Assembly (NCBI GenBank): GCA_965205215.1
Contig: OZ242041.1
Span: 1,600,001 to 1,664,000 of the forward strand
Direction: 5' to 3'
DNA length: 64,000 nucleotides
DNA from: Nitrosopumilus sp.
GTDB taxonomy: Archaea > Thermoproteota > Nitrososphaeria > Nitrososphaerales > Nitrosopumilaceae
Shown here: piece by piece, positions 1,414 to 57,634 of the stretch
Numbering within the stretch: position 1 is the first letter of the stretch
How the letters are laid out: the number at the start of each line of letters is the position of its first letter
Program-made: the position numbers and the translations under genes
The notes under the pieces: model-generated
The model's input: only the letters and a program-made list of their open reading frames with translations
Told to the model about the DNA's origin: nothing
Databases searched by the model: none

Positions 1414-1526
1414 TGCCACACGGGCGCGCCGTGATCTTTAAGCTTTTCGTGACTTTGTCAGTAAAAAGTTGGACAGCGCCCGCCTCCACTAAAAGCACAT
1501 AAATCAAAGGCACGTACAGCAGCCTC

Positions 1527-2681
1527 GTGAAGGTTACGGTATCGGCCATAAAGGCCGACGTGGGCGGAGTCGGCGGGCACACGAGGCCCAGCGACGGGCT
1601 GATTGCGGCAGTAAGGGGCGTGGTGCAGTCCTCAAGTGACATGCTCCTTGACCACTACATCGGATACTGCGGCGACGACGTCCACATTGTAATGTCCCAC
1701 ACGCACGGGACCGACAGCGAGGGGATACACAAGCTTGCATGGGACGCGTTCATGGCTGGCACGGAGGTCGCAAGGGCCGAGGGACTCTACGGCGCGGGCC
1801 AGGACCTGCTGAAGGACTCGTTTTCCGGGAACGTAAAAGGCATGGGCCCAGGCGTGGCCGAGATGGAGTTTGAGGAGAGGCCCAACGAGGCGTTTACCAT
1901 ATTTGCGGCGGACAAGACCGAGCCAGGGGCGTTCAACTACCCCATATACAGGATGTTCGTGGACGCGCTCAGCAACACCGGACTCATAGTCAACAAGAGC
2001 CTGGCAAGGGGCGTCGTGATAAACGTGATGGACGTGGAGGGTGGCAGGATTGCCGAGCTTGAGATGTGGCAGGACAAGCCGCTTTTGGAGGCGGCCCTGA
2101 TGTACCCCGGCAGGTACGTGGTGGACTCCGTGTACACAAAGGACGGCGAGCCGATACTATCGGCGTCCACCGACCGGTTGCACAACATAGCCGGCACGTA
2201 TGTCGGCAAGGACGATCCCATCTGCATGGTGAGGACGCAGAAGATGTTCCCCGCCACAGAAGAGGTCGGCAGCGTATTCAACAACCCGCACTACGTGGCC
2301 GGGAACACGCGCGGCAGCCACAACATGCCGCTGATGCCGGTAAGGCTCAACTCGGCGGCCACGATCAACTTTTGCATTCCAATTGTAGAGGCCCTGGTGT
2401 TCAGCATGCACGAAGGGAGGCTGACGGGGCCGTTTGACGGATTCTCCACGCCGGACTGGGATCTTGTCAGGGAGCGCGCCACGGCAAAGGCGCTCGAGAT
2501 GAGGAGCCAGGGCTTTATACACCCGGCCACACTGGTCCCCTCCGAGCTTGAATACGCCGAGGGCTACAAGGCTGTCATCAGCTCGCTGGACGAGAAGATG
2601 GTTCCAATGGACAACGCGTCAACCGGCGCAGCCAAGGCCGACGATGACGGCAGTGGAACCAAGTACGAGGATCCCGACTAG
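1527..2681 (+). CDS. fbp: Bifunctional fructose-1,6-bisphosphate aldolase/phosphatase (class V FBPase)
   Basis: IKADVGGVGGHT, GLYGAGQDLLKDSFSGNVKGMGPG, YVGKDDP, RGSHNMPLMPV motifs. Confidence 0.97.
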   Translation: MKVTVSAIKADVGGVGGHTRPSDGLIAAVRGVVQSSSDMLLDHYIGYCGDDVHIVMSHTHGTDSEGIHKLAWDAFMAGTEVARAEGLYGAGQDLLKDSFSGNVKGMGPGVAEMEFEERPNEAFTIFAADKTEPGAFNYPIYRMFVDALSNTGLIVNKSLARGVVINVMDVEGGRIAELEMWQDKPLLEAALMYPGRYVVDSVYTKDGEPILSASTDRLHNIAGTYVGKDDPICMVRTQKMFPATEEVGSVFNNPHYVAGNTRGSHNMPLMPVRLNSAATINFCIPIVEALVFSMHEGRLTGPFDGFSTPDWDLVRERATAKALEMRSQGFIHPATLVPSELEYAEGYKAVISSLDEKMVPMDNASTGAAKADDDGSGTKYEDPD

Positions 2682-2795
2682 AGGCAGCAGGACAGGCGCG
2701 CGCCACCCGCTTTCGAGCCAAATGCCAGGATTCGGCGGGCAGATCGGCAGAAAATGCGGGAAATAGTTAAATCAAAAAGGCACAAAGGCCATTTG

Positions 2796-3209
2796 ATGAG
2801 CAAGGTCGGCTGGATCTTTGAGTGGAGGACGTACCTTGCTACCGCACTGGCCGTGATCTCATTCTCGAACTTTATGGCGGTGCTGTTCGGACAGACCATA
2901 CCCGGCGTGGTCGTCGACTTTTTCAGGGTGGCAGGCGAGTACGTGGTGCTCGGCGCCGTCTTCGTGTTCGCCATGGCCTGGCTCCTAAAGGCAAAGCCCC
3001 ACAACCGCCCAAAGGCGTACCGCATAGTGGTCTTTGACGTGTACGGCAAGCAGGTGGTCGTCGACGGGATACGCACCGAGTTCAAGACGCACGACGTGGC
3101 ATGGAGCTACATGAAGCAGTACAAGGCGGCGTACCCGCTGCACAACTTTGCGCTCATCTCCGACATGACGCCGGGGCCTAACAAACCCACCATACTCAGG
3201 TACATCTGA
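2796..3209 (+). CDS. Hypothetical membrane protein (2 N-terminal TM helices)
   Basis: Host-like codon usage, two hydrophobic helices, AT-rich promoter upstream; start moved to ATG 2796. Confidence 0.75.
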   Translation: MSKVGWIFEWRTYLATALAVISFSNFMAVLFGQTIPGVVVDFFRVAGEYVVLGAVFVFAMAWLLKAKPHNRPKAYRIVVFDVYGKQVVVDGIRTEFKTHDVAWSYMKQYKAAYPLHNFALISDMTPGPNKPTILRYI

Positions 3210-3242
3210 ACTGTTTTTATTCGGCCCCGCCGCAAAAAGGCA

Positions 3243-5000
3243 GTGGAGTTTTCCGTTCTTGCAGACGCGTTTGAGAAGATGGAATCCACCACAAAGCGTA
3301 ACGAGCTCACCCAGATACTGATAGCGCTGTTCGAGCAGACGCCGCATGACGTGGTGGCAAGGGCCGTGTACCTCCTGCAGGGAAAGATCAGGCCGGACTT
3401 TGAGGGCGTCGAACTCGGGGTGGCAGAGAAGCTTGCCATAAAGGCCCTCTCAAAGTCCTCCGGCGTCCCCACGAAAAGGATAGAGGAACAGTACCGCAAG
3501 GACGGCGACCTGGGCCGCGCGTCAATCGATATAATGGGGCAGAAGACGCAGACCACGTTCTTTGTGCAGGACATTACGGTAGAGAGGGTGTACGATACCC
3601 TCTTCAGGATTGCGAGGCTCGAGGGGGCGCGTTCGCAGGGCATGAAGTCGAGGTACATATCAAGCCTGCTGAACGACGCGCGTCCGGCAGAGGCCGGATA
3701 CATACTGAAGATACTGCTCGGGACGCTGCGGTTTGGCATAGCCGAGAACACGATAATGGACGCGCTGGCCGCCGCGTTCACGGGGGACAAGGCAAACCGC
3801 GGCGCGGTCGAGCGCGCATACAACGTGTCAAGCGACCTCGGGGCCGTCGCCGAAGCCATCGCCGCGGACGGGCTGGAGGGGGCAGGCAGGTTCAAGGCCG
3901 AGCCGTTCCGCCCCATACGGCCCATGCTCGCCGAGCGCGTCAAGAGCGAGGAGGACGCCATATCGAAGATGGGAGCCGGACTCGCCGCAGAATACAAGCT
4001 TGACGGCGAGCGGGTGCAGGTGCACATGTCAGGCAAGAGGGTCGAGATGTTCTCGCGAAGGCTCGAGAACATCACCGCCCACTATCCGGACATCGCAGAG
4101 AGGCTGCCTCAGGACGTGTCCGCGGGAGAAGCCATACTGGAGGCCGAGGCGGTTGCAGTAAACGAGAAGACCGGCGAGTTCCTGCCGTTCCAGGAGCTCA
4201 TGCACCGCAGAAGAAAGCACAAGATCGAAAAGGCCGTGTCCGAATACCCGGTTACGGTCAACTTTTTCGACATACTGTATCTGGACGGCAAGAGCTGCCT
4301 GGAGGTTCCGTATGCAAAGAGGCGCGCCATACTGGAGGACACCATAGCGGAGGGGGAGCGCGTGAGGTGCGTCGCGATGGCCACGATAACCAGCGCGCAG
4401 GAGATGTCGGAGTTTATGGAGAGCGCAATAAACGCAGGGAGCGAAGGCCTGATGCTAAAGATGCCGGACGCCACATACCAGGCGGGGGCGCGCGGAAGCA
4501 ACTGGCTAAAGCTCAAAAAAGAGTACAGGAGCGAGCTCGGCGACAGCCTCGACCTAGTGGTGGTCGGGGGATTTTTTGGCAAGGGCCGGAGGACGGGCAT
4601 ATACGGCACGCTCCTGCTTGCGGCGTACGACGACCAGCTCGACACGTTCCCCAGCGTATGCAAGGTGGGCACCGGATTCACCGACGAGGAGCTTGACAGG
4701 CTCTACCAGATACTGCATCCCAAGGTTACGATAAGGAGAAACCCGCGCATAGACAGCGCGATGGAGGCCGAGGTGTGGTTTGAGCCCGAGCTTGTTATAG
4801 AGACGGTGGCATCGGAGATAACGCTCAGCCCCGTCCACAGGGCCGCGTGGGACGCGGTAAGGAAGGATGCTGGACTCGCGCTCAGGTTTCCAAAGTATAC
4901 GGGCCGCACAAGGGACGAAAAGCACCCGGAGAGCGCGACTACGACGCGCGAGATAGTCTCAATGTACAGGAGCCAGAAAAAGACCCTGCACGTAGAGTGA
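3243..5000 (+). CDS. lig: ATP-dependent DNA ligase
   Basis: EYKLDGER adenylation motif, EGLMLK, WLKLK, LRFP. Confidence 0.98.
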   Translation: MEFSVLADAFEKMESTTKRNELTQILIALFEQTPHDVVARAVYLLQGKIRPDFEGVELGVAEKLAIKALSKSSGVPTKRIEEQYRKDGDLGRASIDIMGQKTQTTFFVQDITVERVYDTLFRIARLEGARSQGMKSRYISSLLNDARPAEAGYILKILLGTLRFGIAENTIMDALAAAFTGDKANRGAVERAYNVSSDLGAVAEAIAADGLEGAGRFKAEPFRPIRPMLAERVKSEEDAISKMGAGLAAEYKLDGERVQVHMSGKRVEMFSRRLENITAHYPDIAERLPQDVSAGEAILEAEAVAVNEKTGEFLPFQELMHRRRKHKIEKAVSEYPVTVNFFDILYLDGKSCLEVPYAKRRAILEDTIAEGERVRCVAMATITSAQEMSEFMESAINAGSEGLMLKMPDATYQAGARGSNWLKLKKEYRSELGDSLDLVVVGGFFGKGRRTGIYGTLLLAAYDDQLDTFPSVCKVGTGFTDEELDRLYQILHPKVTIRRNPRIDSAMEAEVWFEPELVIETVASEITLSPVHRAAWDAVRKDAGLALRFPKYTGRTRDEKHPESATTTREIVSMYRSQKKTLHVE

Positions 5001-5215
5001 CGGGACGGGCGCGCCCCACGACGATTCTCAACAGCCGGGGCGAAGGATCATGCGGGCCGAATGATCCGCGCCGTCGCGCGGCGCACGTGCAAGCAGCTAC
5101 GCCGTCGCCGCCACCCCGACGACGACGGCGGCGCCGCAAACGAGGCTGCCCAGGAAGAGGCTGCGGCCGCAACCATACACAACTTAAATTACAGAATCGC
5201 CTTTTACTCTCTGTT

Positions 5216-5869: not shown

Positions 5870-5975
5870 GTCCGCGCACGTGTTTTGGGACAGGGCGTGG
5901 CGGCGGGACGGATCATACCGCGTCGGGAAACAGGGAGAGTGCAACCCATATACGCAGGCAGTGCGCACGCCACGC

Positions 5976-6917: not shown

Positions 6918-6972
6918 CCCCGCTCATCGCCTACCCTTCGATATTGCCATCACTCGATAATCACCACAGCCG

Positions 6973-6997
6973 TCATCATCATCATCATCATCATCAT
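6973..6997. repeat. (TCA)8 microsatellite
   Basis: Eight perfect TCA units, intergenic. Confidence 0.9.
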
Positions 6998-7021
6998 TTG
7001 TCACTGCCATTAACTGTCAAG

Positions 7022-16709: not shown

Positions 16710-16761
16710 CGATCGTAAAAAACGTAGTTTCTACAAAAAACAGCTCTATTTTTTACGATCG
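16710..16761. promoter_or_regulatory. 13-bp perfect inverted repeat upstream of an AT-rich promoter
   Basis: CGATCGTAAAAAA (16710-16722) / TTTTTTACGATCG (16749-16761), 26-bp spacer. Confidence 0.6.
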
Positions 16762-16819
16762 ATTTGTATAATTTTTTTAATATTAACCATTGAAAAATAG
16801 CCATAATTTCGATAAAAGC

Positions 16820-17452
16820 ATGGCAAGACCAAAAGCTACAAAGCGCAAGCCGGGCAGACCAGCCAAGAAGGCGACCGTTGCAAAGCGCAAGCCGGGCAGA
16901 CCAGCCAAGAAGGCTACTGCTGCAAAGAAGGCGACCGTTGCAAAGCGCAAGCCGGGCAGACCAGCCAAGAAGGCTACTGCTGCAAAGAAGGCGACCGTTG
17001 CAAAGCGCAAGCCGGGCAGACCAGCCAAGAAGGCTACTGCTGCAAAGAAGGCGACCGTTGCAAAGCGCAAGCCGGGCAGACCAGCCAAGAAGGCTACTGC
17101 TGCAAAGAAGGCGACCGTTGCAAAGCGCAAGCCGGGCAGACCAGCCAAGAAGGCTACTGCTGCAAAGAAGGCGACCGTTGCAAAGCGCAAGCCGGGCAGA
17201 CCAGCCAAGAAGGCTACTGCTGCAAAGAAGGCGACCGTTGCAAAGCGCAAGCCGGGCAGACCAGCCAAGAAGGCTACTGCTGCAAAGAAGGCGACCGTTG
17301 CAAAGCGCAAGCCGGGCAGACCAGCCAAGAAGGCTACTGCTGCAAAGAAGGCGACCGTTGCAAAGCGCAAGCCGGGCAGACCAGCCAAGAAGGCGACCGT
17401 TGCAAAGCGCAAGCCGGGCAGACCACCAGCAAAGGCCAAGAGCAAGAAGTAA
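16820..17452 (+). CDS. Highly basic H1/HMGA-like repeat protein with 11 AT-hook-like KRKPGRP motifs
   Basis: ATG after strongly AT-rich promoter, downstream terminator, K/A/R/P/T-dominated composition. Confidence 0.85.
   Translation: MARPKATKRKPGRPAKKATVAKRKPGRPAKKATAAKKATVAKRKPGRPAKKATAAKKATVAKRKPGRPAKKATAAKKATVAKRKPGRPAKKATAAKKATVAKRKPGRPAKKATAAKKATVAKRKPGRPAKKATAAKKATVAKRKPGRPAKKATAAKKATVAKRKPGRPAKKATAAKKATVAKRKPGRPAKKATVAKRKPGRPPAKAKSKK
16865..17394. repeat. Perfect 60-bp tandem repeat, about 8.8 copies
   Basis: Consecutive 60-nt lines are identical; encodes KKATVAKRKPGRPAKKATAA. Confidence 0.97.
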
Positions 17453-17477
17453 TACGAAACAGTGGCAGACCCACAAC

Positions 17478-17508
17478 CGTCGCTTTGGCGACGTGTTTTT
17501 CTTATTTT
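17478..17508 (+). terminator. Hairpin plus T-tract terminator
   Basis: CGTCGC-TTTG-GCGACG followed by TGTTTTTCTTATTTT. Confidence 0.6.
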
Positions 17509-17817
17509 AGTATCAGACAATGAAGTTTGGATGTGAAGCGGTTTTTCAACTGGAAGTAGGAGCAAGTCATGGCCGTTACCTTGGTTTCAATCAGATAGCG
17601 TTATGAATTCAATCAGGGCGGCACGCACCTGTACTGCATTCATCACATCACCGCCTGTGCATGACATAGGATGCACCAGCACAATCCACATCACAGCAGA
17701 GTGGCAAGGAGGCAAACAGGGTAAGAAAGGGCATGTCCAGACGACGCGCGGCAAAACAGCGGCACGGCCGGTCCCACCGGTCCAGAAGGCGGACAGTGCC
17801 GCAAGTAGTATCGCGGC

Positions 17818-19770
17818 CTAGTATAGATAGCTCATGAGCTTGATCTGCTCCTCGGTGTTTATGACTCCCTTGTTGGTGAGAATCTCCAGCAGATCCTTGA
17901 ATAGCGCCTTTTGTTCCGCAGACATTCCACCCGACGGTCCCTTCTCCCCGGGTAGCCCCGGTGGCCCGCGCGAGCCCTGCGGTCCCATGGGGCCCTGGGG
18001 GCCTTGGGGGCCCTGCTCACCGTCAGGGCCTGGCTGTCCCTTCGGACCGCGCTCGCCCTGTAGTCCCTGAATGCCCTGGGGGCCTTGGGGGCCCTTGTCT
18101 CCGGGCGGTCCTGGCGGGCCTCGCTCACCTTGCGAGCCCTGTGGGCCTTGGGGGCCCTTCTCCCCTGTAGGCCCCTGAGTACCGGTCTCTCCCTTGTCGC
18201 CCTGCGGGCCTACTGGGCCCTTGTCACCCTTGTCGCCCTGCGGTCCAGGCACTCCGGTAAGCCCCTTTGCACCGGCAGGGCCCTGTGGTCCCTGGGGGCC
18301 CTTTTCTCCTACAGGCCCCTGAGTACCGGTCTCTCCCTTGTCGCCCTGCGGGCCTACTGGGCCCTTGTCACCCTTGTCGCCCTGCGGTCCAGGCACTCCG
18401 GTAAGCCCCTTTGCACCGGCAGGGCCCTGTGGTCCCTGGGGGCCCTTGTCGCCGGTAGAGCCGGCCTGTCCTGGCGGGCCTGGCTCTCCGATCGGGCCCG
18501 GGGGTCCCTGAGAGCCCTTTTCACCCGGGATGCCTACTGGACCAGTCGCTCCTTTTTCACCCGGGGGGCCTATGGTTCCTGTGATGCCCTTGTCTCCGGG
18601 CGGGCCAGAGGGGCCCTTCTCGCCCTTGTCTCCGACAGAACCGCGCGGTCCCACGGGGCCCTTGTCTCCGGGCGGGCCCGTAATGCCGCGCTCTCCCTTG
18701 TCTCCGACGGGGCCCTTGAGGCCCACGGGGCCCTTGTCTCCGGGCGGGCCCGTAATGCCCTTGTCGCCCTTGTCTCCGGGCGGGCCCGTAATGCCCTTGT
18801 CGCCCTTGTCGCCCTTGTCGCCAGCTACGCCCTTGTCGCCCATAACGCCCCTTTCGCCCGTGGGGCCCTTGTCGCCCTTGTCGCCCTGCGGGCCTGCGGG
18901 GCCCTTGTCGCCCTTGGATCCCTTATCACCGGTAATGCCCTTGTCGCCGACGGGTCCCTTGTCCCCCGCAGGGCCCTTGTCGCCGACGGGTCCCTTGTCC
19001 CCCGCAGGGCCCTTGTCGCCGACGGGTCCCTTGTCCCCCGCAGGGCCCGTGGGCCCAGTGGCGCCGCGTCTTCCAACAGGACCAGGCATGCCGGCCGGAC
19101 CCTGAGGCCCCGAAGGACCCATGCGCCCGGCAGACGCAGCTGCGGCAGAATCAGGGATAGTGGAAGGGCGAGTGGTGCCGGCAGTCGCGCGGGTTGGAGA
19201 GTCCCAAGACGGCGGGGCGGGCTGAGGTGGCTGCGGGGGGCGGACGGGGCGCGGCCCGGATTGCGCGCCGGAAGGATCCCTTTCCTGTTTTCCAAGGGTG
19301 CCTTGCAAGTCTGCGGAGGAGTCAGCGGCCCCCCTCTGGGCGCCGTCTGCCGTTGTTCTTGTCGACCCCGGGGCAGGAGGGGGCGGAACCGGCCTCTTTT
19401 TGGCGGGAGTGCCAGCTGCCGCCTTCTTCTTCTGTGTGTCTTTGTCCGCCTTTGCAGCTTTCTGGGAAGACTCCAGCGGCACGTCAAATACGGAGTTTGC
19501 CGAGGAGAATATGTCAGATACTACAATCCACACCGTCGTGGAATTCTTGAGTGAGTCCGGAATCGGGTTTCCCTCCGAACCCAGCGTCTCTGAAAACTTG
19601 CCGTCCTCTACGCGCAGGTGAAAATGGTCGCTCCACAGGCTGTCAAACTTGTTGCGCCTGACGTCCTCTTCGGAAGGCTTTGATTTTGATATGGATATCT
19701 TGACCTCGTACACGCCAGGCTTCACAAACGGAGCCTTGCCGCTAACCTTGAGGCCGGGCTTTAGTGACAC
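17818..19770 (-). CDS. Collagen-like protein (about 134 Gly-X-Y triplets)
   Basis: Gly-X-Y run spanning 17923-19128, globular N-domain, short helical C-domain. Confidence 0.92.
18169..18447. repeat. 135-bp direct repeat (period 144) within the collagen gene
   Basis: 18169-18303 matches 18313-18447. Confidence 0.8.
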
Positions 19771-26073: not shown

Positions 26074-26463
26074 TCAGTCGGGGCGCCTGCCCATGCCCTT
26101 TGCGTCAAGGGCGGTGTACACGTCGGGCATCGAATACACATAGCCCACGTGTATGCAGTCCGCCGCATCGCAAAGGAAGCAGTGCAGCTCGCCCTTTTGA
26201 AGCACTATCTCCACTATGCGGTTCTTCAGGTTGTCCTTGAGGATGACGCGGTCGTCCTCAACTGAGATGCTCTCGATCTTTGGCGCATACCGGGCAAAAG
26301 TCTCGTCGCGGTTCATGGCCTCCTCTAGCATGTACGAGACGTAGCCGGAGAGGCTCCTGACGCCCTTCGTGGCCAGAGTCTCCTTGTTGCCGTTGTAGAC
26401 TTCCTGGAACCGGTCGTAGATATAGTCAGAGACGGTTATCGACTTGAATCCTTCTTTTGGCAT
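26074..26463 (-). CDS. Putative RHH-type DNA-binding protein with a C-terminal Zn site
   Basis: FKSITVSD strand plus helices; CFLCDAADCIH. Confidence 0.75.
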   Translation of the reverse strand: MPKEGFKSITVSDYIYDRFQEVYNGNKETLATKGVRSLSGYVSYMLEEAMNRDETFARYAPKIESISVEDDRVILKDNLKNRIVEIVLQKGELHCFLCDAADCIHVGYVYSMPDVYTALDAKGMGRRPD

Positions 26464-26495
26464 TGTACCTTCCTTAACGGTACAATTAGGTACAA
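26462..26495. promoter_or_regulatory. Putative operator: three GGTACAA boxes between TATA and ATG
   Basis: ATTGTACC (26462-26469), GGTACAAT (26479-26486), GGTACAA (26489-26495). Confidence 0.6.
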
Positions 26496-26685
26496 ATATA
26501 AAAATATGCCGATCTAGCATGTATTCAAACGTATTATTACGGTTTGGATGCCCGCCTGGCGGCGCCCATCCTTTAGGCGGAGCAGAAGCCGCGCGGCGCG
26601 CGGCATCCGGCGCGCCCGCGGCAGGTCGGCTTGCGGAGGCCGCGCCAGCATTGGCTTTAAATTTGTCATGGCTCGGGTTGCATTC

Positions 26686-27732
26686 ATGATGGCGGAGGCA
26701 GAAGCTGCTGCAGAGTCGCAAGCCAGTGGCTCCGATGACGGCGCGGGCGGAGCAGGAAGAAAGCCAGATGCCGATGCAGGCCCTGCCAAGGACAAGACAT
26801 CGTACGATGTGATTATAATCGGAGGAGGCCCTGCCGGGTACACGGCCGGGATATACTGCTCCCGTGGCGGCTATGACACGCTCCTGCTCTCAGGCATACT
26901 GCCGGGAGGCCAGCTCGTGAACACCACGGACGTGGAGAACTATCCCGGGTTCAAGTCTGGCGTGATGGGCCCCGACCTGATGATCGACATGCGCGAGCAG
27001 TGTGCCAAGATGGGAACCACCATACTGGACCACGAGGTCACAAACGTGGACTTTAGGGGCAACCCACTCAGGGTACTGACGGGCAGCGCCGAATACGAGG
27101 CGCGGGCCATAATCATAGCGACGGGCGCGACCCCGAAAAAATTGGGGCTCGAGGGCGAGCAGACATTCGGAGGGCGCGGGGTCTCGTACTGCGCCACGTG
27201 CGACGGTCCGTTCTTCAGGGGGCAGCCCATTGTGGTAGTGGGGGGCGGAGACACGGCCATGGAGGAGGCGACGTTCCTGACAAAGTTTGGAACGGAGGTG
27301 CACCTGATACACAGGAGGGACGAGCTGCGCGCAAGCAAGGCCATGCAGGCAAGAGCCTTTGCAAACAAGAAGATGGTGTTTCATTGGGACTCGGTGGTGA
27401 CCGACATAAGGGGTGACGAGAACAAGGTAAAGCAGATCGTGCTAAGAAACACCAAGACCGGCGCCGAGGACACGCTCGATGTGGGGGCCCTCTTCGTCGC
27501 AATAGGGCACAAGCCGAACACGGACCTATTCGAGGGGCAGGTCGATCTCGACGCCAAAAAATACGTGACGTTAAAGGGTAGCGGACAGGGCACCAGCGCC
27601 AAGGGCGTCTTTGCCGCCGGGGACGTCCACGATGCAACTTACAGACAGGCCGTCACGGCGGCGGGGTTTGGCTGCATGGCGGCGCTAGACGTAGACGAGT
27701 ATCTCAGCAGCGGTGGCGGGGACGGCGCATGA
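26686..27732 (+). CDS. trxB: Thioredoxin reductase
   Basis: GGGPAG, VSYCATCDG, GGGDTA.EEA, FAAGDV...YRQA. Confidence 0.97.
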   Translation: MMAEAEAAAESQASGSDDGAGGAGRKPDADAGPAKDKTSYDVIIIGGGPAGYTAGIYCSRGGYDTLLLSGILPGGQLVNTTDVENYPGFKSGVMGPDLMIDMREQCAKMGTTILDHEVTNVDFRGNPLRVLTGSAEYEARAIIIATGATPKKLGLEGEQTFGGRGVSYCATCDGPFFRGQPIVVVGGGDTAMEEATFLTKFGTEVHLIHRRDELRASKAMQARAFANKKMVFHWDSVVTDIRGDENKVKQIVLRNTKTGAEDTLDVGALFVAIGHKPNTDLFEGQVDLDAKKYVTLKGSGQGTSAKGVFAAGDVHDATYRQAVTAAGFGCMAALDVDEYLSSGGGDGA

Positions 27733-27815
27733 CGCGCCGCGGGCACGCATAGGAACGCACCGGATCAAGCCCCGGCGCCAGCATCAGTAAAATAGAGCGC
27801 GTACGTTTGGCATGC

Positions 27816-28001
27816 ATGGGGGCAAAGACGCCGGCAGTGAGGCTCCGCACGTGCCCCAGAAGCTGCACGCAGCACCGCACCAAGTCAGGCAGGCTGGCAG
27901 AAAGGAACACGTTTGACGGGACGAGGTGCCGCAACTGCGGATTCGCGCTCGACAGGGACGACACGGACGTAAAGTTCGAAAGGGCGTCGGACTTTTTGTG
28001 A
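27816..28001 (+). CDS. Small putative zinc-binding protein
   Basis: CPRSC...CRNC; TAAAATA about 28 nt upstream. Confidence 0.5.
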   Translation: MGAKTPAVRLRTCPRSCTQHRTKSGRLAERNTFDGTRCRNCGFALDRDDTDVKFERASDFL

Positions 28002-28099
28002 ACAGGGCACACACACCAAAGGGCGGAGATGCCGCGCACAGCGCAGGACCGCCGCGCCGTCTTTGCCCGTCACGGCATACGCCGCGAGGGGGATCTGTT

Positions 28100-29750
28100 G
28101 TATAGACTCAGGTCGCCACGTCTCATGATTCGAGCATATGTGAAGGACCGTCTCAGCATGTGGCGGCGACAGAGGGCACCGCCGTTGTAGCCTGTACCAG
28201 CCGTTCGACGCGCTCCGGGCAGTCGGGCGGTTTGAATATGCGCCAGTCAGGATCCTCGATCATGCGCTCCACCGCCATACGCGGGAACACACCCATCTTC
28301 TGGCACGTGCGCGCGACGGACACCAGCACGGAGAACACGTGGCGCCCGTCGGGTTCTGACAGCTGGTGGCGCACGTTGCGGTGCAGCACGACGGTATCGC
28401 GTATTTCCAGCTCGGCGGCGTTGTTATGGGGCGGCATGCCCGGACATCTGAGGAACGTGAACAGGTGCGGGGCGGCGTTCTCCAGCGTCTCGCGGAACCC
28501 GTGACCCTTTTTGTAGCCCGACGCTATGCGCAGCACGGCCCTCTCCAGGTTTAGGCACTCGGCGCCGTCCGCCGACTCGCGGCTTTTGATCCTCCGGTAC
28601 ATGGAGAGCAGCCTGCGGTAGCACGACAGGTCGTCCCCGCCGTTTCTCACGGCGTATTTCTCGGCCTCGCGCAGTATGTGGGCCCAGCAGCGCTGCCTGA
28701 CCGGGAGCATGCCGTACGCGACATATCCGTCCGTGACGGCCGGCATGCCCAGCAGGCCGCCAAAGTGCAGCTCCAGTACGGCCGCGGCCCTGCTCGGGGC
28801 CGCCACGATATACGTGGCGTCCCCTGTAGTCGCCAGCCATACGTACCCCCTCTTGCCGTTCATCCTGATAACCGACTCGTCGAACTGGACGAACGCGGCG
28901 CGCGAGATCCTCTCTAGGATGCCGTCGTACGCGGCCCCGAGCAGGTTCCTTATCGCCCTGCGCGCGTTCCAGACCGCGTTTGCGGACACCGAAAAGCCGT
29001 AGAGCGCCCGGAAATAGTACGATATGGTCGAGTCAGTCGACCTCTTGGCGTAGTATTCGAGTATGAACCCTAGGGCCCTCGGGCCGAACGACGTGCCGGG
29101 CGGCAGGGGAGCCGGGGCGGTGCTGACCGCGCTGCACCTCCTGCAGAATCCGCGCTCGAGCACGTACGCGACCGTCTCGATGCACCTGCTGCTTTCATCC
29201 GGAAAGTCGTTTACGATTCTCGTGACGGGGGCCGCGTACGCGAGGTGGCCACGCCCACAGTTCCGGCACCGGTACAGGCGCATGCGCTCCCTCCTCGAGG
29301 GCCTGTTACCGTGGGACGCGCCCTCGTGCCCCTCCGGAGGCCCGCTGCGCCTGCCCGCCGCGCTTTCTTTCGGTTCAGGTCCGCCCCCGTCCCCCTCCTC
29401 TTCTGCCAGCCTCTTCCGGAACGCGTCGCGCTCCGCGTTGTATATGGAACCCGTGGAGGACGGCGCGTTCGGGCTCTCGTATTTGGCCAGCCTCCTGTCC
29501 TGCTCTGCAATAGTCTCCATAAGCAGGTCTATCTGCTCCTCAAGGCCGGCCCTTATCCTGTCACGCTCGGCCTCCACCCGGGCGACTGCATCCTGCAGCC
29601 TCTTGATCTCCGCCATCATCTTGGCCATCTCCCGACGCAGCAGTGCCGTCTCGGAATCGCCCATGGACAATTTGCAGAATATATGATCTATAAGCTTGTC
29701 GGCCTGCCAGAGTTGCCAACAGGGTCACAGGCATGGACGTGAGTCCATAC
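28100..29750 (-). mobile_element. IS66-family (single-ORF, ISBst12-like) element, copy 1, 1651 bp
   Basis: Inverted termini GTATAGACTCAGGTC vs GTATGGACTCACGTC (13/15); 8-bp TSD GATCTGTT at 28092-28099 and 29751-29758. Confidence 0.95.
28153..29664 (-). CDS. IS66-family transposase (TnpC-like)
   Basis: Coiled coil, Zn finger, FDES, TDGY, QRCWAHILR, NNAAE.EIR; ATG 29664 preferred over TTG 29670. Confidence 0.93.
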   Translation of the reverse strand: MGDSETALLRREMAKMMAEIKRLQDAVARVEAERDRIRAGLEEQIDLLMETIAEQDRRLAKYESPNAPSSTGSIYNAERDAFRKRLAEEEGDGGGPEPKESAAGRRSGPPEGHEGASHGNRPSRRERMRLYRCRNCGRGHLAYAAPVTRIVNDFPDESSRCIETVAYVLERGFCRRCSAVSTAPAPLPPGTSFGPRALGFILEYYAKRSTDSTISYYFRALYGFSVSANAVWNARRAIRNLLGAAYDGILERISRAAFVQFDESVIRMNGKRGYVWLATTGDATYIVAAPSRAAAVLELHFGGLLGMPAVTDGYVAYGMLPVRQRCWAHILREAEKYAVRNGGDDLSCYRRLLSMYRRIKSRESADGAECLNLERAVLRIASGYKKGHGFRETLENAAPHLFTFLRCPGMPPHNNAAELEIRDTVVLHRNVRHQLSEPDGRHVFSVLVSVARTCQKMGVFPRMAVERMIEDPDWRIFKPPDCPERVERLVQATTAVPSVAATC

Positions 29751-29806
29751 GATCTGTTCGGCTCATACTTTATATAATTAGCAACTTTGCTCAGGCCAGA
29801 AGCCAA

Positions 29807-30487
29807 TTGCTGGTAATTTTTGACGTGGAAGGAGTGCTGTATGACGAGGAGTACCTGCCCATTTTGGCAGAAAAGATAAACAAGGAGAAAGAGATCTGGG
29901 AGATTACAAAAAAGGGAATCCAGGGCAAGATAGACTGGGAGCAGGGCCTCAGGACCAGAATTGACGCCCTGAGGGGAATAGACGAGCGCACGTGCAGGGA
30001 ACTTGCAGAGTCGCTTCCCATTATGACGGGGGCGAGAGAGGCGTGCAGGGCACTCAAGGCGGCAGGCTGGAGGCTCATGGCCGTGTCAGGCGGATTTACG
30101 ATAATGATGGACAGGCTCCAGAAGGAGCTGGGCCTCGACTACATATTCTCAAACGAGCTCGTGTTCTCAGACGGCAAGCTGGACGGTGTCAGGGTGAACG
30201 TGGATGCGGACAAGTCAAAGTCGGCCAGAATCAAGATTGCAGAATGGGGCGAGCGCAAGGAGGACATCGTGTGCGTGGTGGACGGTGCAAACGACATAAA
30301 GCTCTTTGACATATGCGGGCTCGGCATAGCATACAGGGCCCACGACATGGTAAAGGACAGGGCCACGGCCACGCTCGAGGTGAAGGATCTGAGGGGAATA
30401 CTGGACATCATAAAGCAGCACTACAGGATAAAGGAATTTCCAGAGCAGAATGTCAAGGCGCACAAGCCGGTCATGCGTCAAAAGTGA
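29807..30487 (+). CDS. serB: Phosphoserine phosphatase
   Basis: FDVEGVL, VSGGF, DGANDI; TTG start after TTTATATA. Confidence 0.88.
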   Translation: MLVIFDVEGVLYDEEYLPILAEKINKEKEIWEITKKGIQGKIDWEQGLRTRIDALRGIDERTCRELAESLPIMTGAREACRALKAAGWRLMAVSGGFTIMMDRLQKELGLDYIFSNELVFSDGKLDGVRVNVDADKSKSARIKIAEWGERKEDIVCVVDGANDIKLFDICGLGIAYRAHDMVKDRATATLEVKDLRGILDIIKQHYRIKEFPEQNVKAHKPVMRQK

Positions 30488-46894: not shown

Positions 46895-48188
46895 TTTCCA
46901 TTGTGGAAACGTTGCGATGCTTGCCGTCGTTTGATATGAGCGAGTCAGAAGATATCCTCACGTCGCTTATCGTATACCCCACAGTGTCCATTCGCTTGAT
47001 AATCATCTGCGAGACGTCCACTGCGTTGGTGATCTTCTTGCCCCTTGCCTTTATTGTCACCGTGTCCTGGTTTGCAAGCTGAGTAAGTGTGGCAGAGACA
47101 TATGTCATTATGGGCTTGCTGCCCACAAATATGACATCCCTCATTGAAGAGGATTCGGAGCTAGCAGCGGTCTCAGGCGATGGTTCTGGCGCGGTGGCGG
47201 TCTCAGGTGATGGTTCTGGCGATGGTTCAGGCGCGGGCTCTGGCGATGGTTCAGGCGCGGGCTCTGGCGATGGTTCAGGCGCGGGCTCTGGCGATGGTTC
47301 AGGCGCGGGCTCTGGCGATGGTTCAGGCGCGGGCTCTGGCGATGGTTCAGGCGCGGGCTCTGGCGATGGTTCAGGCGCGGGCTCTGGCGATGGTTCAGGC
47401 GCGGGCTCTGGCGATGGTTCAGGCGCGGGCTCTGGCGATGGTTCAGGCGCGGGCTCTGGCGATGGTTCAGGCGCGGGCTCTGGCGATGGTTCAGGCGCGG
47501 GCTCTGGCGATGGTTCAGGCGCGGGCTCTGGCGATGGTTCAGGCGCGGGCTCTGGCGATGGTTCAGGCGCGGGCTCTGGCGATGGTTCAGGCGCGGGCTC
47601 TGGCGATGGTTCAGGCGCGGGCTCTGGCGATGGTTCAGGCGCGGTGGCGGTCTCAGGCGATGGTTCAGGCGATGGTTCAGGCGATGGTTCTGGCGCGGTG
47701 GCGGTCTCAGGCGATGGTTCTGGCGCGGGCTCTGGCGCGGTGGCGGTCTCAGGCGATGGTTCTGGCGCGGTGGCGGTCTCAGGCGATGGTTCTGGCGATG
47801 GTTCTGGCGATGGTTCTGGCGCGGTGGCGGTCTCAGGCGATGGTTCTGGCGCGGGCTCTGGCGATGGTTCTGGCGCGGTGGCGGTCTCAGGCGATGGTTC
47901 TGGCGCGGGCTCTGGCGATGGTTCTGGCGCGGTGGCGGTCTCAGGCGCGGGTTCAGGCGATGGTTCTGGCGCGGTGGCGGTCTCAGTGTCATCGCGGTAC
48001 ACGGATGAAGCGTCGTCAGGGGTACAAGCACACCCAGAGTCGTGTCCGGCATGTGGCACATCTTCTGCAGACCCAATTCCAGAAGGTTCGTCAGGTGTGC
48101 TCGTATTGGTAGATATCTCAGACTGTGTTTTAGAGGTAAATTCGGACAATATCTCTTCGGCATCGGTTGACTTCTTCTCGCCGTACAT
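46875..48188 (-). CDS. Alba-domain protein with a long acidic Pro/Glu-rich N-terminal extension
   Basis: C-terminal [12 protein letters not shown]...IKARG..I..AVDV...RNVSTMEI Alba signature. Confidence 0.9.
47167..47985. repeat. Tandem repeat region; core of 17.8 perfect 24-bp units (47218-47644) plus mixed 12/15-bp modules
   Basis: (GGCGATGGTTCAGGCGCGGGCTCT)n, encoding PEPAPEPS on the minus strand. Confidence 0.95.
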
Positions 48189-51725: not shown

Positions 51726-51734
51726 GACGGGTCA

Positions 51735-53319: not shown

Positions 53320-53507
53320 GTATGATATGAGGCAGCGTCGTTTATAAAAGTCAGGCCTCCGCAGCGGCGGCGGGGACGGTGGCAGGGCGGAGCGCAACCC
53401 GGGCGCCTGCGCGGGCCAGCGCAGCCGGCTCCTGGCACCGGAGATATGCCGGATGGTCGCCGCGCAGGCCGTACCGATGCCGGCGGCGCGCCAGACCCGC
53501 GCGCGGA

Positions 53508-53891
53508 CTAAAAGTAGTGGATGCGCATATGTACGTTCAGCTCCGTCTCGTACCGCGTGACGAACCCGCAGTGGCTGCAGTTGAACATCTCCTGCGGGGA
53601 CGGGGACGCATCACGATCTATCGGCCTCCCGGTCACGGACGCGATCGTAATTACGTCGTTGTTTGCGATTACTGCAAAGTTACGGCCCTCGCCAATCGAG
53701 TCAAGAAACTCCCTGATCGAGTCGACCACCGTGCCGGCGTCGATCCTAGAGCCGCCGTCCTCGTCCTCGTCAAGCGTCGAGAGGGTGAACTGGTTGTTCT
53801 GCAGGGTCGGTATGGCGGCCACCTGATCGGAGACGTACACCAGCAGCTCGTTTCGTATGGGCAGCACGTCCTTGCAGTCAACCACGAGCAT
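53508..53891 (-). CDS. C2H2 zinc-finger protein
   Basis: C-terminal CSHCGF.T.Y..EL..HMRIH. Confidence 0.8.
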   Translation of the reverse strand: MLVVDCKDVLPIRNELLVYVSDQVAAIPTLQNNQFTLSTLDEDEDGGSRIDAGTVVDSIREFLDSIGEGRNFAVIANNDVITIASVTGRPIDRDASPSPQEMFNCSHCGFVTRYETELNVHMRIHYF

Positions 53892-54070
53892 TGCGCCGCA
53901 TGCCACACAATGCAATTTTAGTCTTGGCGCAGTTGCTGCTACGGCCCCGGGCGGCCCAAACGGCGGGCCGGCACAACCGGCAATTCACGAACCGGTGCGG
54001 CGCCAAGCAGGTCATGTGCACCGGCACGCCGGAAAGGAATCAATATTACGGCCGCATTCAAATCGACTGC

Positions 54071-54457
54071 ATGAAGGACTCGGAGACGTTTGGCGTTGAG
54101 GAGGGAAGCGGCAGGGAGGTAGTCGACTGGCTCAATGGGCAGGCGGATGCCAGAAAGATCAAGCTCGAGGCCAGGTTGTACGGGTACAGCGTCGAGACGA
54201 AAAATTTTGGCAGGTTTGAGATGTTCTCGTGGATAGGCGACGTGCAGACGGCAAGAAGGATGATCATAAAAGCAAGCAAGCGCTTCAAGGTGAAGGTGAT
54301 CGAGGGCGGATACAAGCCGAGGGAGAGGGTGCTGAGAATGGAGCGGTTTGACTATGCAAAGGTCAGGAGGGGCGACAGGGTCATAGGACAGATAGAGTTT
54401 GTCGCGTCAAGGTTCGGCAGGGGCCAGTGGACAGTAAGGGACGAGGAGAGAAGGTGA
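54071..54457 (+). CDS. Hypothetical protein
   Basis: 128-aa ORF with host-like codon bias. Confidence 0.72.
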   Translation: MKDSETFGVEEGSGREVVDWLNGQADARKIKLEARLYGYSVETKNFGRFEMFSWIGDVQTARRMIIKASKRFKVKVIEGGYKPRERVLRMERFDYAKVRRGDRVIGQIEFVASRFGRGQWTVRDEERR

Positions 54458-54477
54458 CGCCTGTGGCAGACGGGAAG

Positions 54478-55425
54478 ATGCGGGGGGAGAAGGAGGCAGG
54501 GGCGCCCGGCACCAACCCCGCAAGGCCGCGCATCGGAATAGTCGGCACGGGCATGCTCGGAAGCGCCGTCGCAGTCAGGCTCGCAGAATCTGGCGCGTAC
54601 GCGGTGTCCGCATACAACAGGACCGCCCAAAACGCTGAAGTGGCCGGGGCCGCGGGGGCCAGGGTTCTGGGGTCGCCTGCGGCGGTCGCCAAGGAGTCCG
54701 ACGTTGTAGTTACAATCGTAAAGGACGCGGACGCTGTCAGGGACGTCTCGTTCGGCCCCGGCGGGATCGTCGAAGGCTGCCACGGGGGCCTGACAGTGGC
54801 AGACATGAGCACGATCGATCCGGCAGGCTCAAAGGAGATCACCGCAGAGTGCGCGCGGTACGGCATAGGCAGGGTAGACTCCCCCGTAATGGGAGGCCCC
54901 GACGCGGCCGCGGCCGGAAGTCTGGTCGTGATGGCATCCGGCAGCCGCGTCGCGTTTGACGCGTGCAGCCAGGTCTTTGACTACATGGCAGAGAGCGTAT
55001 TCTATCTCGGCGACAGGCCCGGCACGGCCCACACCATCAAGCTTGCAATGAACATGCAGATAACCATGCTTGCACTCTCGCTTGCGGAGGGAATCACGCT
55101 GGTGGACAGGTCCGGGGCCGATCCCAAGGCATTCCTTGACGTGCTGAACTCCACCTATTTCTCCACGGGGATGAGCCGCAAAAAGGCCTACAACATGATA
55201 AGCGGCCGGCAGAACCCGACGTTTACGCTTGCAAACCTGAGAAAGGACATAGGCATAATGACGTCCGCGGCAGGCCTGCTAGGCGTGGATCTGCCTATGA
55301 CAAAGGCGGCAGAAAAAGTATACGACGAGGCGCTCAGTGAAGGGCACGGGGAGCTCGACTATACGTGCATAATCAGGCACATAAGGGAGCGGCACGACAA
55401 AGAGCAGCAGCAGCAGGCGCAGTGA
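54478..55425 (+). CDS. NAD(P)-dependent beta-hydroxyacid dehydrogenase (3-hydroxyisobutyrate DH family)
   Basis: GTGMLG, DMSTI, DSPVMGG, KLAMN, KD; start uncertain. Confidence 0.92.
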   Translation: MRGEKEAGAPGTNPARPRIGIVGTGMLGSAVAVRLAESGAYAVSAYNRTAQNAEVAGAAGARVLGSPAAVAKESDVVVTIVKDADAVRDVSFGPGGIVEGCHGGLTVADMSTIDPAGSKEITAECARYGIGRVDSPVMGGPDAAAAGSLVVMASGSRVAFDACSQVFDYMAESVFYLGDRPGTAHTIKLAMNMQITMLALSLAEGITLVDRSGADPKAFLDVLNSTYFSTGMSRKKAYNMISGRQNPTFTLANLRKDIGIMTSAAGLLGVDLPMTKAAEKVYDEALSEGHGELDYTCIIRHIRERHDKEQQQQAQ

Positions 55426-55726
55426 CGCGGCACGCCGCACGCAGCCAGGATGCAGGCAGGCACCAGTCACGCAGGTGCAATCCCCTTGCGGCTCCGTCCG
55501 GCATACGCCTTGTAGCACAGCGCGGACACGACCAGCACCATTCCCGTGATTGCCGACCACAGCACAAAGGAGAGCGCCTGCGCATCTTCCATGAACCGCG
55601 CTGCGCGGGGCAACTAATACGTCTGCCGTTAAATCACGGGCCACGGCAGGGCCGACCAGGCCACGGCCCGAGGTTTCAAGGCCCGGGGCGCCCGGTCAGA
55701 TCCGGAGCCGGCCCGAGGATGCACGA

Positions 55727-57377
55727 GTATAGACTCAGGTCGCCACGTCTCATGATTCGAGCATATGTGAAGGACCGTCTCAGCATGTGGCGGCGACAGA
55801 GGGCACCGCCGTTGTAGCCTGTACCAGCCGTTCGACGCGCTCCGGGCAGTCGGGCGGTTTGAATATGCGCCAGTCAGGATCCTCGATCATGCGCTCCACC
55901 GCCATACGCGGGAACACACCCATCTTCTGGCACGTGCGCGCGACGGACACCAGCACGGAGAACACGTGGCGCCCGTCGGGTTCTGACAGCTGGTGGCGCA
56001 CGTTGCGGTGCAGCACGACGGTATCGCGTATTTCCAGCTCGGCGGCGTTGTTATGGGGCGGCATGCCCGGACATCTGAGGAACGTGAACAGGTGCGGGGC
56101 GGCGTTCTCCAGCGTCTCGCGGAACCCGTGACCCTTTTTGTAGCCCGACGCTATGCGCAGCACGGCCCTCTCCAGGTTTAGGCACTCGGCGCCGTCCGCC
56201 GACTCGCGGCTTTTGATCCTCCGGTACATGGAGAGCAGCCTGCGGTAGCACGACAGGTCGTCCCCGCCGTTTCTCACGGCGTATTTCTCGGCCTCGCGCA
56301 GTATGTGGGCCCAGCAGCGCTGCCTGACCGGGAGCATGCCGTACGCGACATATCCGTCCGTGACGGCCGGCATGCCCAGCAGGCCGCCAAAGTGCAGCTC
56401 CAGTACGGCCGCGGCCCTGCTCGGGGCCGCCACGATATACGTGGCGTCCCCTGTAGTCGCCAGCCATACGTACCCCCTCTTGCCGTTCATCCTGATAACC
56501 GACTCGTCGAACTGGACGAACGCGGCGCGCGAGATCCTCTCTAGGATGCCGTCGTACGCGGCCCCGAGCAGGTTCCTTATCGCCCTGCGCGCGTTCCAGA
56601 CCGCGTTTGCGGACACCGAAAAGCCGTAGAGCGCCCGGAAATAGTACGATATGGTCGAGTCAGTCGACCTCTTGGCGTAGTATTCGAGTATGAACCCTAG
56701 GGCCCTCGGGCCGAACGACGTGCCGGGCGGCAGGGGAGCCGGGGCGGTGCTGACCGCGCTGCACCTCCTGCAGAATCCGCGCTCGAGCACGTACGCGACC
56801 GTCTCGATGCACCTGCTGCTTTCATCCGGAAAGTCGTTTACGATTCTCGTGACGGGGGCCGCGTACGCGAGGTGGCCACGCCCACAGTTCCGGCACCGGT
56901 ACAGGCGCATGCGCTCCCTCCTCGAGGGCCTGTTACCGTGGGACGCGCCCTCGTGCCCCTCCGGAGGCCCGCTGCGCCTGCCCGCCGCGCTTTCTTTCGG
57001 TTCAGGTCCGCCCCCGTCCCCCTCCTCTTCTGCCAGCCTCTTCCGGAACGCGTCGCGCTCCGCGTTGTATATGGAACCCGTGGAGGACGGCGCGTTCGGG
57101 CTCTCGTATTTGGCCAGCCTCCTGTCCTGCTCTGCAATAGTCTCCATAAGCAGGTCTATCTGCTCCTCAAGGCCGGCCCTTATCCTGTCACGCTCGGCCT
57201 CCACCCGGGCGACTGCATCCTGCAGCCTCTTGATCTCCGCCATCATCTTGGCCATCTCCCGACGCAGCAGTGCCGTCTCGGAATCGCCCATGGACAATTT
57301 GCAGAATATATGATCTATAAGCTTGTCGGCCTGCCAGAGTTGCCAACAGGGTCACAGGCATGGACGTGAGTCCATAC
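55727..57377 (-). mobile_element. IS66-family element, copy 2 (apparently identical to copy 1)
   Basis: Same termini; 8-bp TSD ATGCACGA at 55719-55726 and 57378-57385; constant offset of 27627 from copy 1. Confidence 0.95.
55780..57291 (-). CDS. IS66-family transposase
   Basis: Translation identical to copy 1. Confidence 0.93.
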   Translation of the reverse strand: MGDSETALLRREMAKMMAEIKRLQDAVARVEAERDRIRAGLEEQIDLLMETIAEQDRRLAKYESPNAPSSTGSIYNAERDAFRKRLAEEEGDGGGPEPKESAAGRRSGPPEGHEGASHGNRPSRRERMRLYRCRNCGRGHLAYAAPVTRIVNDFPDESSRCIETVAYVLERGFCRRCSAVSTAPAPLPPGTSFGPRALGFILEYYAKRSTDSTISYYFRALYGFSVSANAVWNARRAIRNLLGAAYDGILERISRAAFVQFDESVIRMNGKRGYVWLATTGDATYIVAAPSRAAAVLELHFGGLLGMPAVTDGYVAYGMLPVRQRCWAHILREAEKYAVRNGGDDLSCYRRLLSMYRRIKSRESADGAECLNLERAVLRIASGYKKGHGFRETLENAAPHLFTFLRCPGMPPHNNAAELEIRDTVVLHRNVRHQLSEPDGRHVFSVLVSVARTCQKMGVFPRMAVERMIEDPDWRIFKPPDCPERVERLVQATTAVPSVAATC

Positions 57378-57424
57378 ATGCACGACCGTGAAACATCTAA
57401 ATAGATTCGGCGCAGACTCAGTGC

Positions 57425-57634
57425 ATGCCGGAACTGGTGTGCACCGACTGCGGCAAGCGCCTGTACCACGACAACGAGACCACGCTAAAGATACAGGAGA
57501 CCATCCACTCAAAGTTTTGCCGCAAGGAGATGGGCAAGACGCACAGCTACATGCACAGGAACGAGGCGCACATGGAAACCTTTGACGTCGAAAGGGAGAA
57601 CGACACTGCGGGCAACCCCGTCCTCAAAAAGTAG
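57425..57634 (+). CDS. Small putative zinc-finger protein
   Basis: CTDC......H..FC; TATA-like TCTAAATA about 29 nt upstream. Confidence 0.7.
   Translation: MPELVCTDCGKRLYHDNETTLKIQETIHSKFCRKEMGKTHSYMHRNEAHMETFDVERENDTAGNPVLKK

Follow-up and report, generated by a model that had tools for sequence, protein, structure and literature searches.

The window considered here is a stretch of 64,000 nucleotides (bases 1600001-1664000) from a 2,098,239-bp contig of a Nitrosopumilus species with 60.3% G+C, and the elements in question were studied in this and other sponge-associated ammonia-oxidising archaea. The window carries three insertion sequences (ISs), one of an IS5 type and two of an IS66 type. 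Each stands a short distance upstream of the predicted core promoter of a host gene, which consists of a TFB recognition element (BRE) and a TATA box. An earlier, sequence-only reading had noticed this placement and proposed that two unrelated IS families are steered to the upstream edge of the promoter. Insertion at a fixed distance from this edge, with the promoter left intact, is real. The features at the three sites are as follows.

206..214, unstranded: target site duplication (TSD) CGCCTCCAC, left copy, IS5-type element
215..1480, minus strand: IS5-type IS, 1266 bp, with terminal inverted repeats, a 9-bp TSD and a transposase open reading frame (ORF) at 400-1419
1481..1489, unstranded: TSD CGCCTCCAC, right copy, IS5-type element
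1492..1505, plus strand: predicted BRE/TATA core promoter of the fructose-1,6-bisphosphate (FBP) aldolase/phosphatase gene, 9.9 bits, offset 11 from the IS end
1527..2681, plus strand: FBP aldolase/phosphatase gene, GTG start (Pfam FBPase_3, E 1.3e-148)
28092..28099, unstranded: TSD GATCTGTT, left copy, IS66-type copy 1
28100..29750, minus strand: IS66-type IS copy 1, 1651 bp, with one transposase ORF at 28153-29670 (Pfam DDE_Tnp_IS66, E 3.1e-21)
29751..29758, unstranded: TSD GATCTGTT, right copy, IS66-type copy 1
29765..29778, plus strand: predicted BRE/TATA core promoter of serB, 12.8 bits, offset 14 from the IS end
29807..30487, plus strand: phosphoserine phosphatase gene serB, TTG start (TIGR00338, 160.3 bits, cut-off 144.15)
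55719..55726, unstranded: TSD ATGCACGA, left copy, IS66-type copy 2
55727..57377, minus strand: IS66-type IS copy 2, 1651 bp, with a transposase ORF at 55780-57297
57378..57385, unstranded: TSD ATGCACGA, right copy, IS66-type copy 2
57392..57405, plus strand: predicted BRE/TATA core promoter of a small ORF, 12.5 bits, offset 14 from the IS end
57425..57634, plus strand: 69-aa cysteine-containing ORF, ATG start, called by the codon model

All junction coordinates and junction sequences given in the sequence-only reading are present in the window, and the transposase 5' end faces the host gene in all three copies, as it had described. CATAAAT at 1498 lies 18 bp from the end of the IS5-type element, and TTTATATA at 29769 (between IS66-type copy 1 and serB) and TCTAAATA at 57396 (downstream of copy 2) each lie 19 bp from the IS end. 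The core promoters were said to be intact beside the IS ends, and they are, with the scores and offsets listed above; such a match is found at 4.7% of random intergenic positions. The distance from the motif start to the start codon is 35 bp for the FBP gene and 33 bp for the small ORF, and the TTG of serB is the first in-frame start codon past the TATA box. The three window genes have a TATA box about 29 bp before the start codon, which is the usual arrangement in this genome. The FBP gene scores 516.3 bits against NCBIfam NF041126 (cut-off 520), and the 69-aa ORF has no family match in Pfam or NCBIfam. DNA free of called genes extends 375, 367, and 301 bp upstream of the three insertion points, which bears out the view that the intergenic gaps are long enough for other sites.

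Judged from domains, inverted repeats and TSD lengths, both elements appear to be unremarkable if distant members of the IS66 family (single-ORF) and of the IS5 family. The IS66-type transposase matches Pfam PF03050 over residues 216-434 (E 3.1e-21) and NCBIfam NF033517 with E 3.7e-45 and 154.7 bits, below the curated cut-off of 180; its sequence points to a distant IS66-family member. The element has the ends GTATAGACTCA and GTATGGACTCA, perfect 8-bp TSDs are found at all four of its independent sites in this genome, and the two window copies are identical in sequence. In the canonical IS66 layout, accessory tnpA and tnpB genes lie upstream of the transposase gene. Here a single 505-aa ORF fills the 1651-bp element and the accessory genes are absent. 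This one-ORF structure matches the single-ORF IS66 subgroup, which we take to be the ISBst12 group. ISBst12 is tabulated as an IS66 subgroup in PMC8024623. The IS5-type transposase matches Pfam PF01609 (DDE_Tnp_1; E 1.9e-17), and its best NCBIfam model is that of the IS5 family (NF033579, 95.7 bits, below the cut-off of 140), the IS982, IS1182, and IS4 models being weaker. The element has the ends GGCGCTGTCCA... at both sides, and its TSD is 9 bp in the window copy and 9-10 bp in the related groups F, H, and I described below.

Some other frames lie close to these insertions. On the minus strand at 2-214, an open frame runs into the IS5-type element; a GTG start within the TSD is possible, and the N-terminus would be hydrophobic. 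If this frame is a gene, the IS5-type element would separate it from whatever promoter it may share with fbp. In an 89%-identical relative the frame is not well preserved, and it may be no gene. A plus-strand frame of 82 aa just upstream of IS66-type copy 1 (27753-28001) contains a CxxC...CxxC pattern. It weakly matches PF07282 (Cas12f1-like/TnpB zinc ribbon; E 0.025, below cut-off) and may be a remnant of another mobile element. The interval 26548-27732 was considered as a TnpB gene and rejected, being a thioredoxin reductase gene.

Insertion distance in this genome and its relatives

Gene calling with a simple codon model gave 1501 genes, which cover 79% of the genome, and a BRE/TATA matrix was derived by expectation-maximisation from the upstream regions of this genome only, independently of the IS elements. 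Across 928 gene-free upstream regions, A+T content is highest between -29 and -23 relative to the start codon and rises again at -34/-33, and the best match to the expectation-maximisation motif begins at -35 to -33. Refined on 339 sequences, the matrix reads AAnnnTTWWWWA, that is, the BRE 'AA' followed by the TATA box. Because of this position of the motif, most genes look leaderless or nearly so. Both flanks of each IS were scanned outward from the IS ends, and the promoter matrix was scored at each offset. A hit is a score of at least 6 bits on either side at offsets 13-15 for IS66-type and 10-12 for IS5-type elements. These offsets and the threshold were chosen on the present genome (G000), and the remaining genomes form a validation set.

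The IS66-type element has five identical copies in G000, two of them as a head-to-tail pair (870560-873869), which gives four independent events. The motif beside the pair scores 13.6 bits at offset 14 and that beside the copy at 406334 scores 8.9 bits at offset 15, so that the offsets in the four events are 14, 14, 14, and 15. ORF starts lie 29-45 bp past the motif start in the IS events of this genome. The copy at 406334-407984 occupies a 65-bp gap between the stop codon of a queE-like gene and the start of folE, with the promoter at the transposase 3' end. It was considered whether this copy and the copy L100 of another genome had used the same promoter twice, as both downstream genes encode 186 aa; the two have no blastp match, and the idea was dropped.

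In the relatives, IS66-type elements were grouped by nucleotide similarity before counting, and their ends were fixed by inverted repeats and perfect 8-bp TSDs. The hits per group are listed below (locus numbers begin with L, genome numbers with G).

IS66-type group B (G000): 4/4
IS66-type group C (G002, 60% aa identity): 6/7, the seventh (L031) scoring 4.6 bits
IS66-type group S (single or paired copies in three further genomes; L100, L101, L106, L107): 3/4, L107 scoring 4.4 bits with an ATG 33 bp on
IS66-type group M (L037, L158; about 55% identity): 2/2
IS66-type group Q (L154, L157; 39% identity): 2/2
IS66-family group N: 0/1
IS66-family group K (G018): 0/2
IS66-family group P (G141; 37-40% identity, 2.1-kb elements): 0/6
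IS66-family group D (G002; about 25% identity): 0/6
IS66-family group E (G002): 0/5
IS5-type group A: 1/1
IS5-type group F: 2/2
IS5-type group H: 3/6
IS5-type group I (transposases only about 30% identical to that of the window): 5/8

The total is 17/39 TSD-flanked insertions in five genomes for the IS66 type, every hit being in groups B, C, S, M, and Q, and 11/17 for the IS5 type. The sequence-only reading had proposed to plot the distances of all copies in the genome. Rather than a broad spread, sharp peaks at offsets 13-15 and 10-12 are found. Over offsets 0-45, IS66-type elements give 9, 14, and 7 events at 13, 14, and 15 and at most 5 at any other offset, and IS5-type elements give 4, 10, and 7 events at 10, 11, and 12 and at most 2 elsewhere. 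Random G000 positions, treated with the same 3-offset window on either side, give a hit in 1.5% of draws over the whole genome and in 4.7% of intergenic draws, and 3.0% of all positions in the flanks of the G002 loci score as hits. The binomial tail for 17/39 is 5e-13 at a background p0 of 0.047 and 6e-8 at p0 = 0.10, and for 11/17 it is 2e-11 and 7e-8, respectively. In groups B, C, and S together, 13 of 15 insertions are hits, for which even p0 = 0.30 gives 9e-6. For 15 of the 17 IS66-type hits, the start codon of an ORF of at least 45 aa lies 20-45 bp past the motif start. Of the earlier claim that two IS families are placed at the upstream promoter edge, the fixed distance therefore stands, against a background of about 3-5%. 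Its extension to whole families does not, because groups N, K, P, D, and E, which are subject to the same selection in the same genomes or in sister ones, give 0/20 at offsets 13-15.

Several copies were left out of these counts. In G000 these are a 77% IS5-type relative (26272-27326) and a 90% IS66-type copy (683384-685035), and elsewhere L109 (= L149), L161, L146, L151, L164, and L167, all without an intact TSD or a full element. Also outside the counts are a truncated third F copy (L083), a second D copy (L039), a truncated D copy (L042), L097, L148, L110, and group J of G018 (two copies, one without TSD). A ninth group-I copy (L048) was missed by the search pattern and is likewise uncounted. 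L047 of group E was kept in spite of an imperfect TSD, and L143 and L144, which are the same places as L100 and L101, were counted once. Metagenome contigs scanned with the transposase and a six-protein alignment gave no relatives and no extra copies.

The uncounted IS66-type copy of G000 (G000:C1:683384-685035) is 90% identical, has no TSD and lies exactly between two host-DNA inverted repeats, perfect over 1383 bp (682008-683390 and 685029-686411), which may be an IS-centred inverted duplication or an assembly effect. Degraded IS66-type fragments are found near the tandem pair and near this palindromic copy (G000:C1:874396-874992 and 692504-692731), and on account of these fragments both regions seem to have been hit repeatedly. 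In groups D and K, the TSDs of L043, L044, and L045 (G002, group D) and of L096 (G018, group K) are A-rich, e.g., AAAAATTT and CAAAATTC, and themselves form the BRE and the TATA start of a promoter-like motif; matrix matches at offsets 0-4 are seen in 3/6 group D events. Such elements may use the landmark in a third manner, with the promoter rebuilt by the duplication. Away from the insertions, the window contains three long tandem-repeat tracts inside large ORFs: one of 60-bp units at 16742-17527, one of about 55 copies of a 12/24-bp unit at 47083-48100, and one at 17984-18985. In the last, 9/36-bp units rich in CCC/GCC are Gly-X-Y-like on the minus strand (ORF 17818-19770).

Older promoters and a one-sided target signal

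The promoters are older than the insertions, because base-precise empty sites are found in relatives and in other sequencing runs. The site of the IS5-type element is empty in G112, G070, and G130, where the block from the last target bases through the TATA box to the start codon is identical and the upstream DNA diverges. The site of IS66-type copy 2 is empty in the same three genomes with its promoter block conserved, and G070 likewise has an empty site for copy 1. Upstream of serB, G130 and G112 have a different context; the TATA box and the downstream DNA are conserved there as well as in G070. Contigs of two other public runs (X4, X5) join 55718 to 57378 and skip exactly 1659 bases, which is the IS plus one TSD; the joint contains 8 ambiguous bases. 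In a further run, the occupied site is spanned by a contig. From these sites, the insertions are recent, precise, and polymorphic.

The conserved signal around the hit sites lies on one side of the target. In the logos, only 'AA' (positions 14-15 for IS66-type and 11-12 for IS5-type) and 'TTATAT' (19-24 and 16-21) reach 0.6 bits, both on the promoter side. The IS66-type logos hold no information in the TSD or in the opposite flank, in line with the earlier remark that the TSD sequences are unrelated. The IS5-type logo has a weak preference at the TSD centre and an A at position 27. From this content, the determinant is one-sided and appears to resemble the average promoter of this genome, without being sharper.

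The orientation of the elements is less regular. The sequence-only reading had them all in the same orientation, and this fails for the 406334-407984 copy. Of the IS66-type hits, 14 have the promoter beside the transposase 5' end and 3 beside the 3' end (binomial p = 0.013), and in the IS5 type the ratio is 4:7 (11 hits; p = 0.55), both group F promoters being at the 3' end by the longest-ORF rule and tblastn strands. The same orientation is thus a tendency of one family and not a rule. Across all genomes, a one-base asymmetry between the IS66-type orientations is seen: the offset is 15 in 3/3 of the 3'-side hits, and on the 5' side it is 14 in 11 events, 13 in two, and 15 in one.

Independent head-to-tail IS66-type pairs occur in two genomes (G000:C1:870560-873869 and L106:743-4052). 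In each, the same 8 bases are found before, between, and after the copies, and the array abuts the promoter at offset 14. The copies of the G000 pair are identical, and those of L106 differ at 6 of 1651 positions. An insertion that regenerates its target and leaves the landmark in place could be followed by a second one at the same spot, which would give a TSD-IS-TSD-IS-TSD array. The arrays are supportive and not decisive, as unequal exchange between TSD copies gives the same structure.

How the site may be chosen

Taken together, these observations make it very likely that both the IS66-type and the IS5-type elements pick their integration sites by a landmark, the host core promoter, and not by the sequence that is duplicated. 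In all probability, the landmark consists of the BRE 'AA' and the TATA box and is read from one side of the target only. For the IS66 type, the cut would place the end of the 8-bp duplication 6 bp (at times 5 or 7) before the BRE 'AA', which would put the motif start 14 bp and the TATA box 18-19 bp from the IS end. For the IS5 type, a duplication of 9-10 bp would end 1-2 bp before the 'AA', with the motif start 11 bp from the IS end. The duplication would restore the promoter-proximal flank, so that the promoter stays whole and the element comes to rest at a harmless site within a gene-dense genome. That the choice is made by the transposition machinery and keyed to the core promoter is supported by the spacing, which is fixed and specific to the family, by the signal on one side only, by the room available upstream, and by the groups that lack the pattern. 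The spacing would then arise in the transposition reaction itself rather than through later selection.

Selection after random insertion, helped by small numbers, would be another way to explain a pile-up of surviving copies just upstream of promoters. The genome is compact, the 406334-407984 event lies in a 65-bp gap with little choice of site, and selection is known to shape the neighbours of intergenic ISs in bacteria, according to the available part of one report (PMC2942039). However, selection yields a boundary and not a peak of one to three bases, and upstream of the three window promoters 301-375 bp without called genes were available. Selection on the promoter would not produce a spacing specific to the family (14 vs 11), and the negative IS66-family groups experienced the same selection. 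This explanation is therefore most improbable. Only slightly less so is the idea that the elements generally favour DNA that is rich in AT and easily melted or bent, without a fixed landmark; at 54-60% G+C, this would mostly lead to promoters. Among the short elements of this genome, TATA boxes have the highest AT content, the A-rich TSDs of group D overlap the BRE/TATA motif in 3/6 cases, and IS1 and IS5 in Escherichia coli favour destabilised sites upstream of several operons, as far as the available part of PMC11043490 describes. Nevertheless, the duplicated target is not AT-rich (e.g., GATCTGTT, ATGCACGA, CGCCTCCAC, GCCTGCTG) and has no information content; the AT-rich box is always beside it, at one distance and on one side, whereas a diffuse choice would spread the offsets. 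Even in combination, selection and a diffuse AT preference make an improbable account.

The landmark reading has weaknesses of its own, and these count against it. The gene caller is crude, and 4.7% may underestimate the intergenic background; for this reason, p0 values of 0.10 and 0.30 were used as well. Calling a motif a promoter depends on the matrix, the start-codon spacing, and conservation, so these remain predicted promoters. The copies seen are survivors of selection only, the offset windows and the 6-bit threshold were set after G000 had been viewed, the insertions of any one validation genome share host and element, and the numbers per group are small. Within the positive groups, no motif of at least 6 bits is present at L031 (4.6), at L107 (4.4), in 3/6 of group H or in 3/8 of group I. 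Some hits have no ORF start within 45 bp past the motif: none is found at L106, L157, and L084, and at L082 (F and I copy) and L089 it lies at 52-66 bp. A further difficulty, the distance between the cut sites and the expected TFB contact, arises below with the protein that might read the landmark.

There is nearly an even chance that the core-promoter landmark is read directly, as DNA sequence or shape, by the transpososome. This is the simpler mechanism; it suits cut sites that lie only 0-4 bp from the expected TFB-BRE contact, and also the few hits without an ORF start at promoter distance. Docking on a bent promoter bound by TBP or TBP/TFB, with integration at the upstream edge of the footprint, is a variant of the landmark explanation and compatible with it, and it is a reasonable though less probable candidate. 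Guidance by some other positioned feature, such as phased chromatin, is highly unlikely. TBP and Brf1 of eukaryotes are relatives of archaeal TBP and TFB. There is a precedent in Ty3, whose integrase is placed by TFIIIB: the Ty3 intasome contacts TBP within TFIIIB and this fixes the integration site, according to the available part of PMC8632968. Docking would also fit a target signal as degenerate as the promoter consensus of the genome, with the BRE 'AA' and TATA box and no extra conserved bases, as well as the use of one landmark at different spacings by two unrelated transposase families. The one-sided determinant and the IS66-type orientation bias of 14:3 point the same way. On the other hand, scissile positions 0-4 bp from the TFB-BRE contact expected from the footprint suggest that the proteins may clash. 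TBP is encoded twice in the genome (near 176.9 kb and 1149 kb), and TFB by five paralogous genes, of which two are neighbours at 1205.5-1207.0 kb, so that there would be several candidate partners. A minority of hits also lack a gene start at promoter distance. That at least two unrelated archaeal DDE families dock on a TBP/TFB-bound bent promoter, as a convergent prokaryotic counterpart of Ty3 and TFIIIB, is thus put forward tentatively.

Comparison with known systems

Full-text searches of the literature yielded no report of promoter-edge targeting for the IS66 or IS5 families or for any archaeal IS, and core-promoter targeting at single-base spacing was not found reported for prokaryotic ISs; the new part is the target choice. 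The available text of a survey of thaumarchaeal mobile elements (PMC6563490), whose tables could list IS positions bearing on novelty, is without the word 'promoter'. Integration at safe-harbour landmarks is well known for eukaryotic retroelements and a few bacterial transposons. If the landmark reading is true, it explains how ISs multiply in compact archaeal genomes without killing genes, it offers a natural one-protein transposase system that reads a promoter or the TBP/TFB complex on it, and IS junctions become markers for archaeal promoter annotation. It would also be a case of convergent evolution with Ty3 and the Dictyostelium elements, and it raises the question of whether such insertions cut genes off from upstream regulators. 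If docking on TBP/TFB is true, the use of the initiation complex as a safe-harbour beacon predates eukaryotes or recurs outside them.

Tn7 uses a selector protein, TnsD, to insert at a single site, attTn7, in a strict orientation and at a fixed distance from a one-sided landmark. As with Tn7, the landmark here is read on one side and the recognised sequence is not disrupted. Unlike Tn7, each element has one ORF and uses many promoters, and orientation is biased at most (14:3 and 4:7). Another known case is the insertion of IS1 and IS5 in E. coli at sites of stress-induced duplex destabilisation (SIDD) upstream of operons, where DNA structure and DNA-binding proteins affect the rate, according to the available part of PMC11043490. 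These are also prokaryotic ISs, one of them an IS5-family member, and prefer sites upstream of promoters. They were found under selection for operon activation and lie inside the destabilised region, and that part of the report describes no single-base spacing. Here, in contrast, a fixed distance separates the target from the AT-rich box next to it, and the promoter is simply left unharmed. SIDD would direct insertions into AT-rich stretches at varying positions, and the present targets have no AT bias.

Two of the closest known cases are eukaryotic. Ty3 integrates in a narrow window that is set by TFIIIB, including the site of the TATA-binding protein and a contact with TBP, as the available part of PMC8632968 describes. 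In both cases, a landmark of transcription initiation sets a window of a few bases, and the gene takes no harm, which suits a genome with closely packed genes. However, Ty3 is a long-terminal-repeat retroelement that has a chromodomain and an integrase of the retroviral type. Its integration falls on the transcription-start side of the complex, and its TBP contact has been demonstrated, whereas the present elements are archaeal DDE insertion sequences with a site upstream of the BRE. TRE5-A and DGLT-A of Dictyostelium and the Ty elements of yeast have convergently come to target tRNA genes at fixed distances in compact genomes, according to the available parts of PMC6101501 and PMC5006619. Likewise, two IS families share the BRE/TATA landmark here, at 14 and 11 bp. 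Those elements are eukaryotic retrotransposons directed to RNA polymerase III genes, whereas the ones described here are archaeal DNA transposons at the promoters of protein genes.

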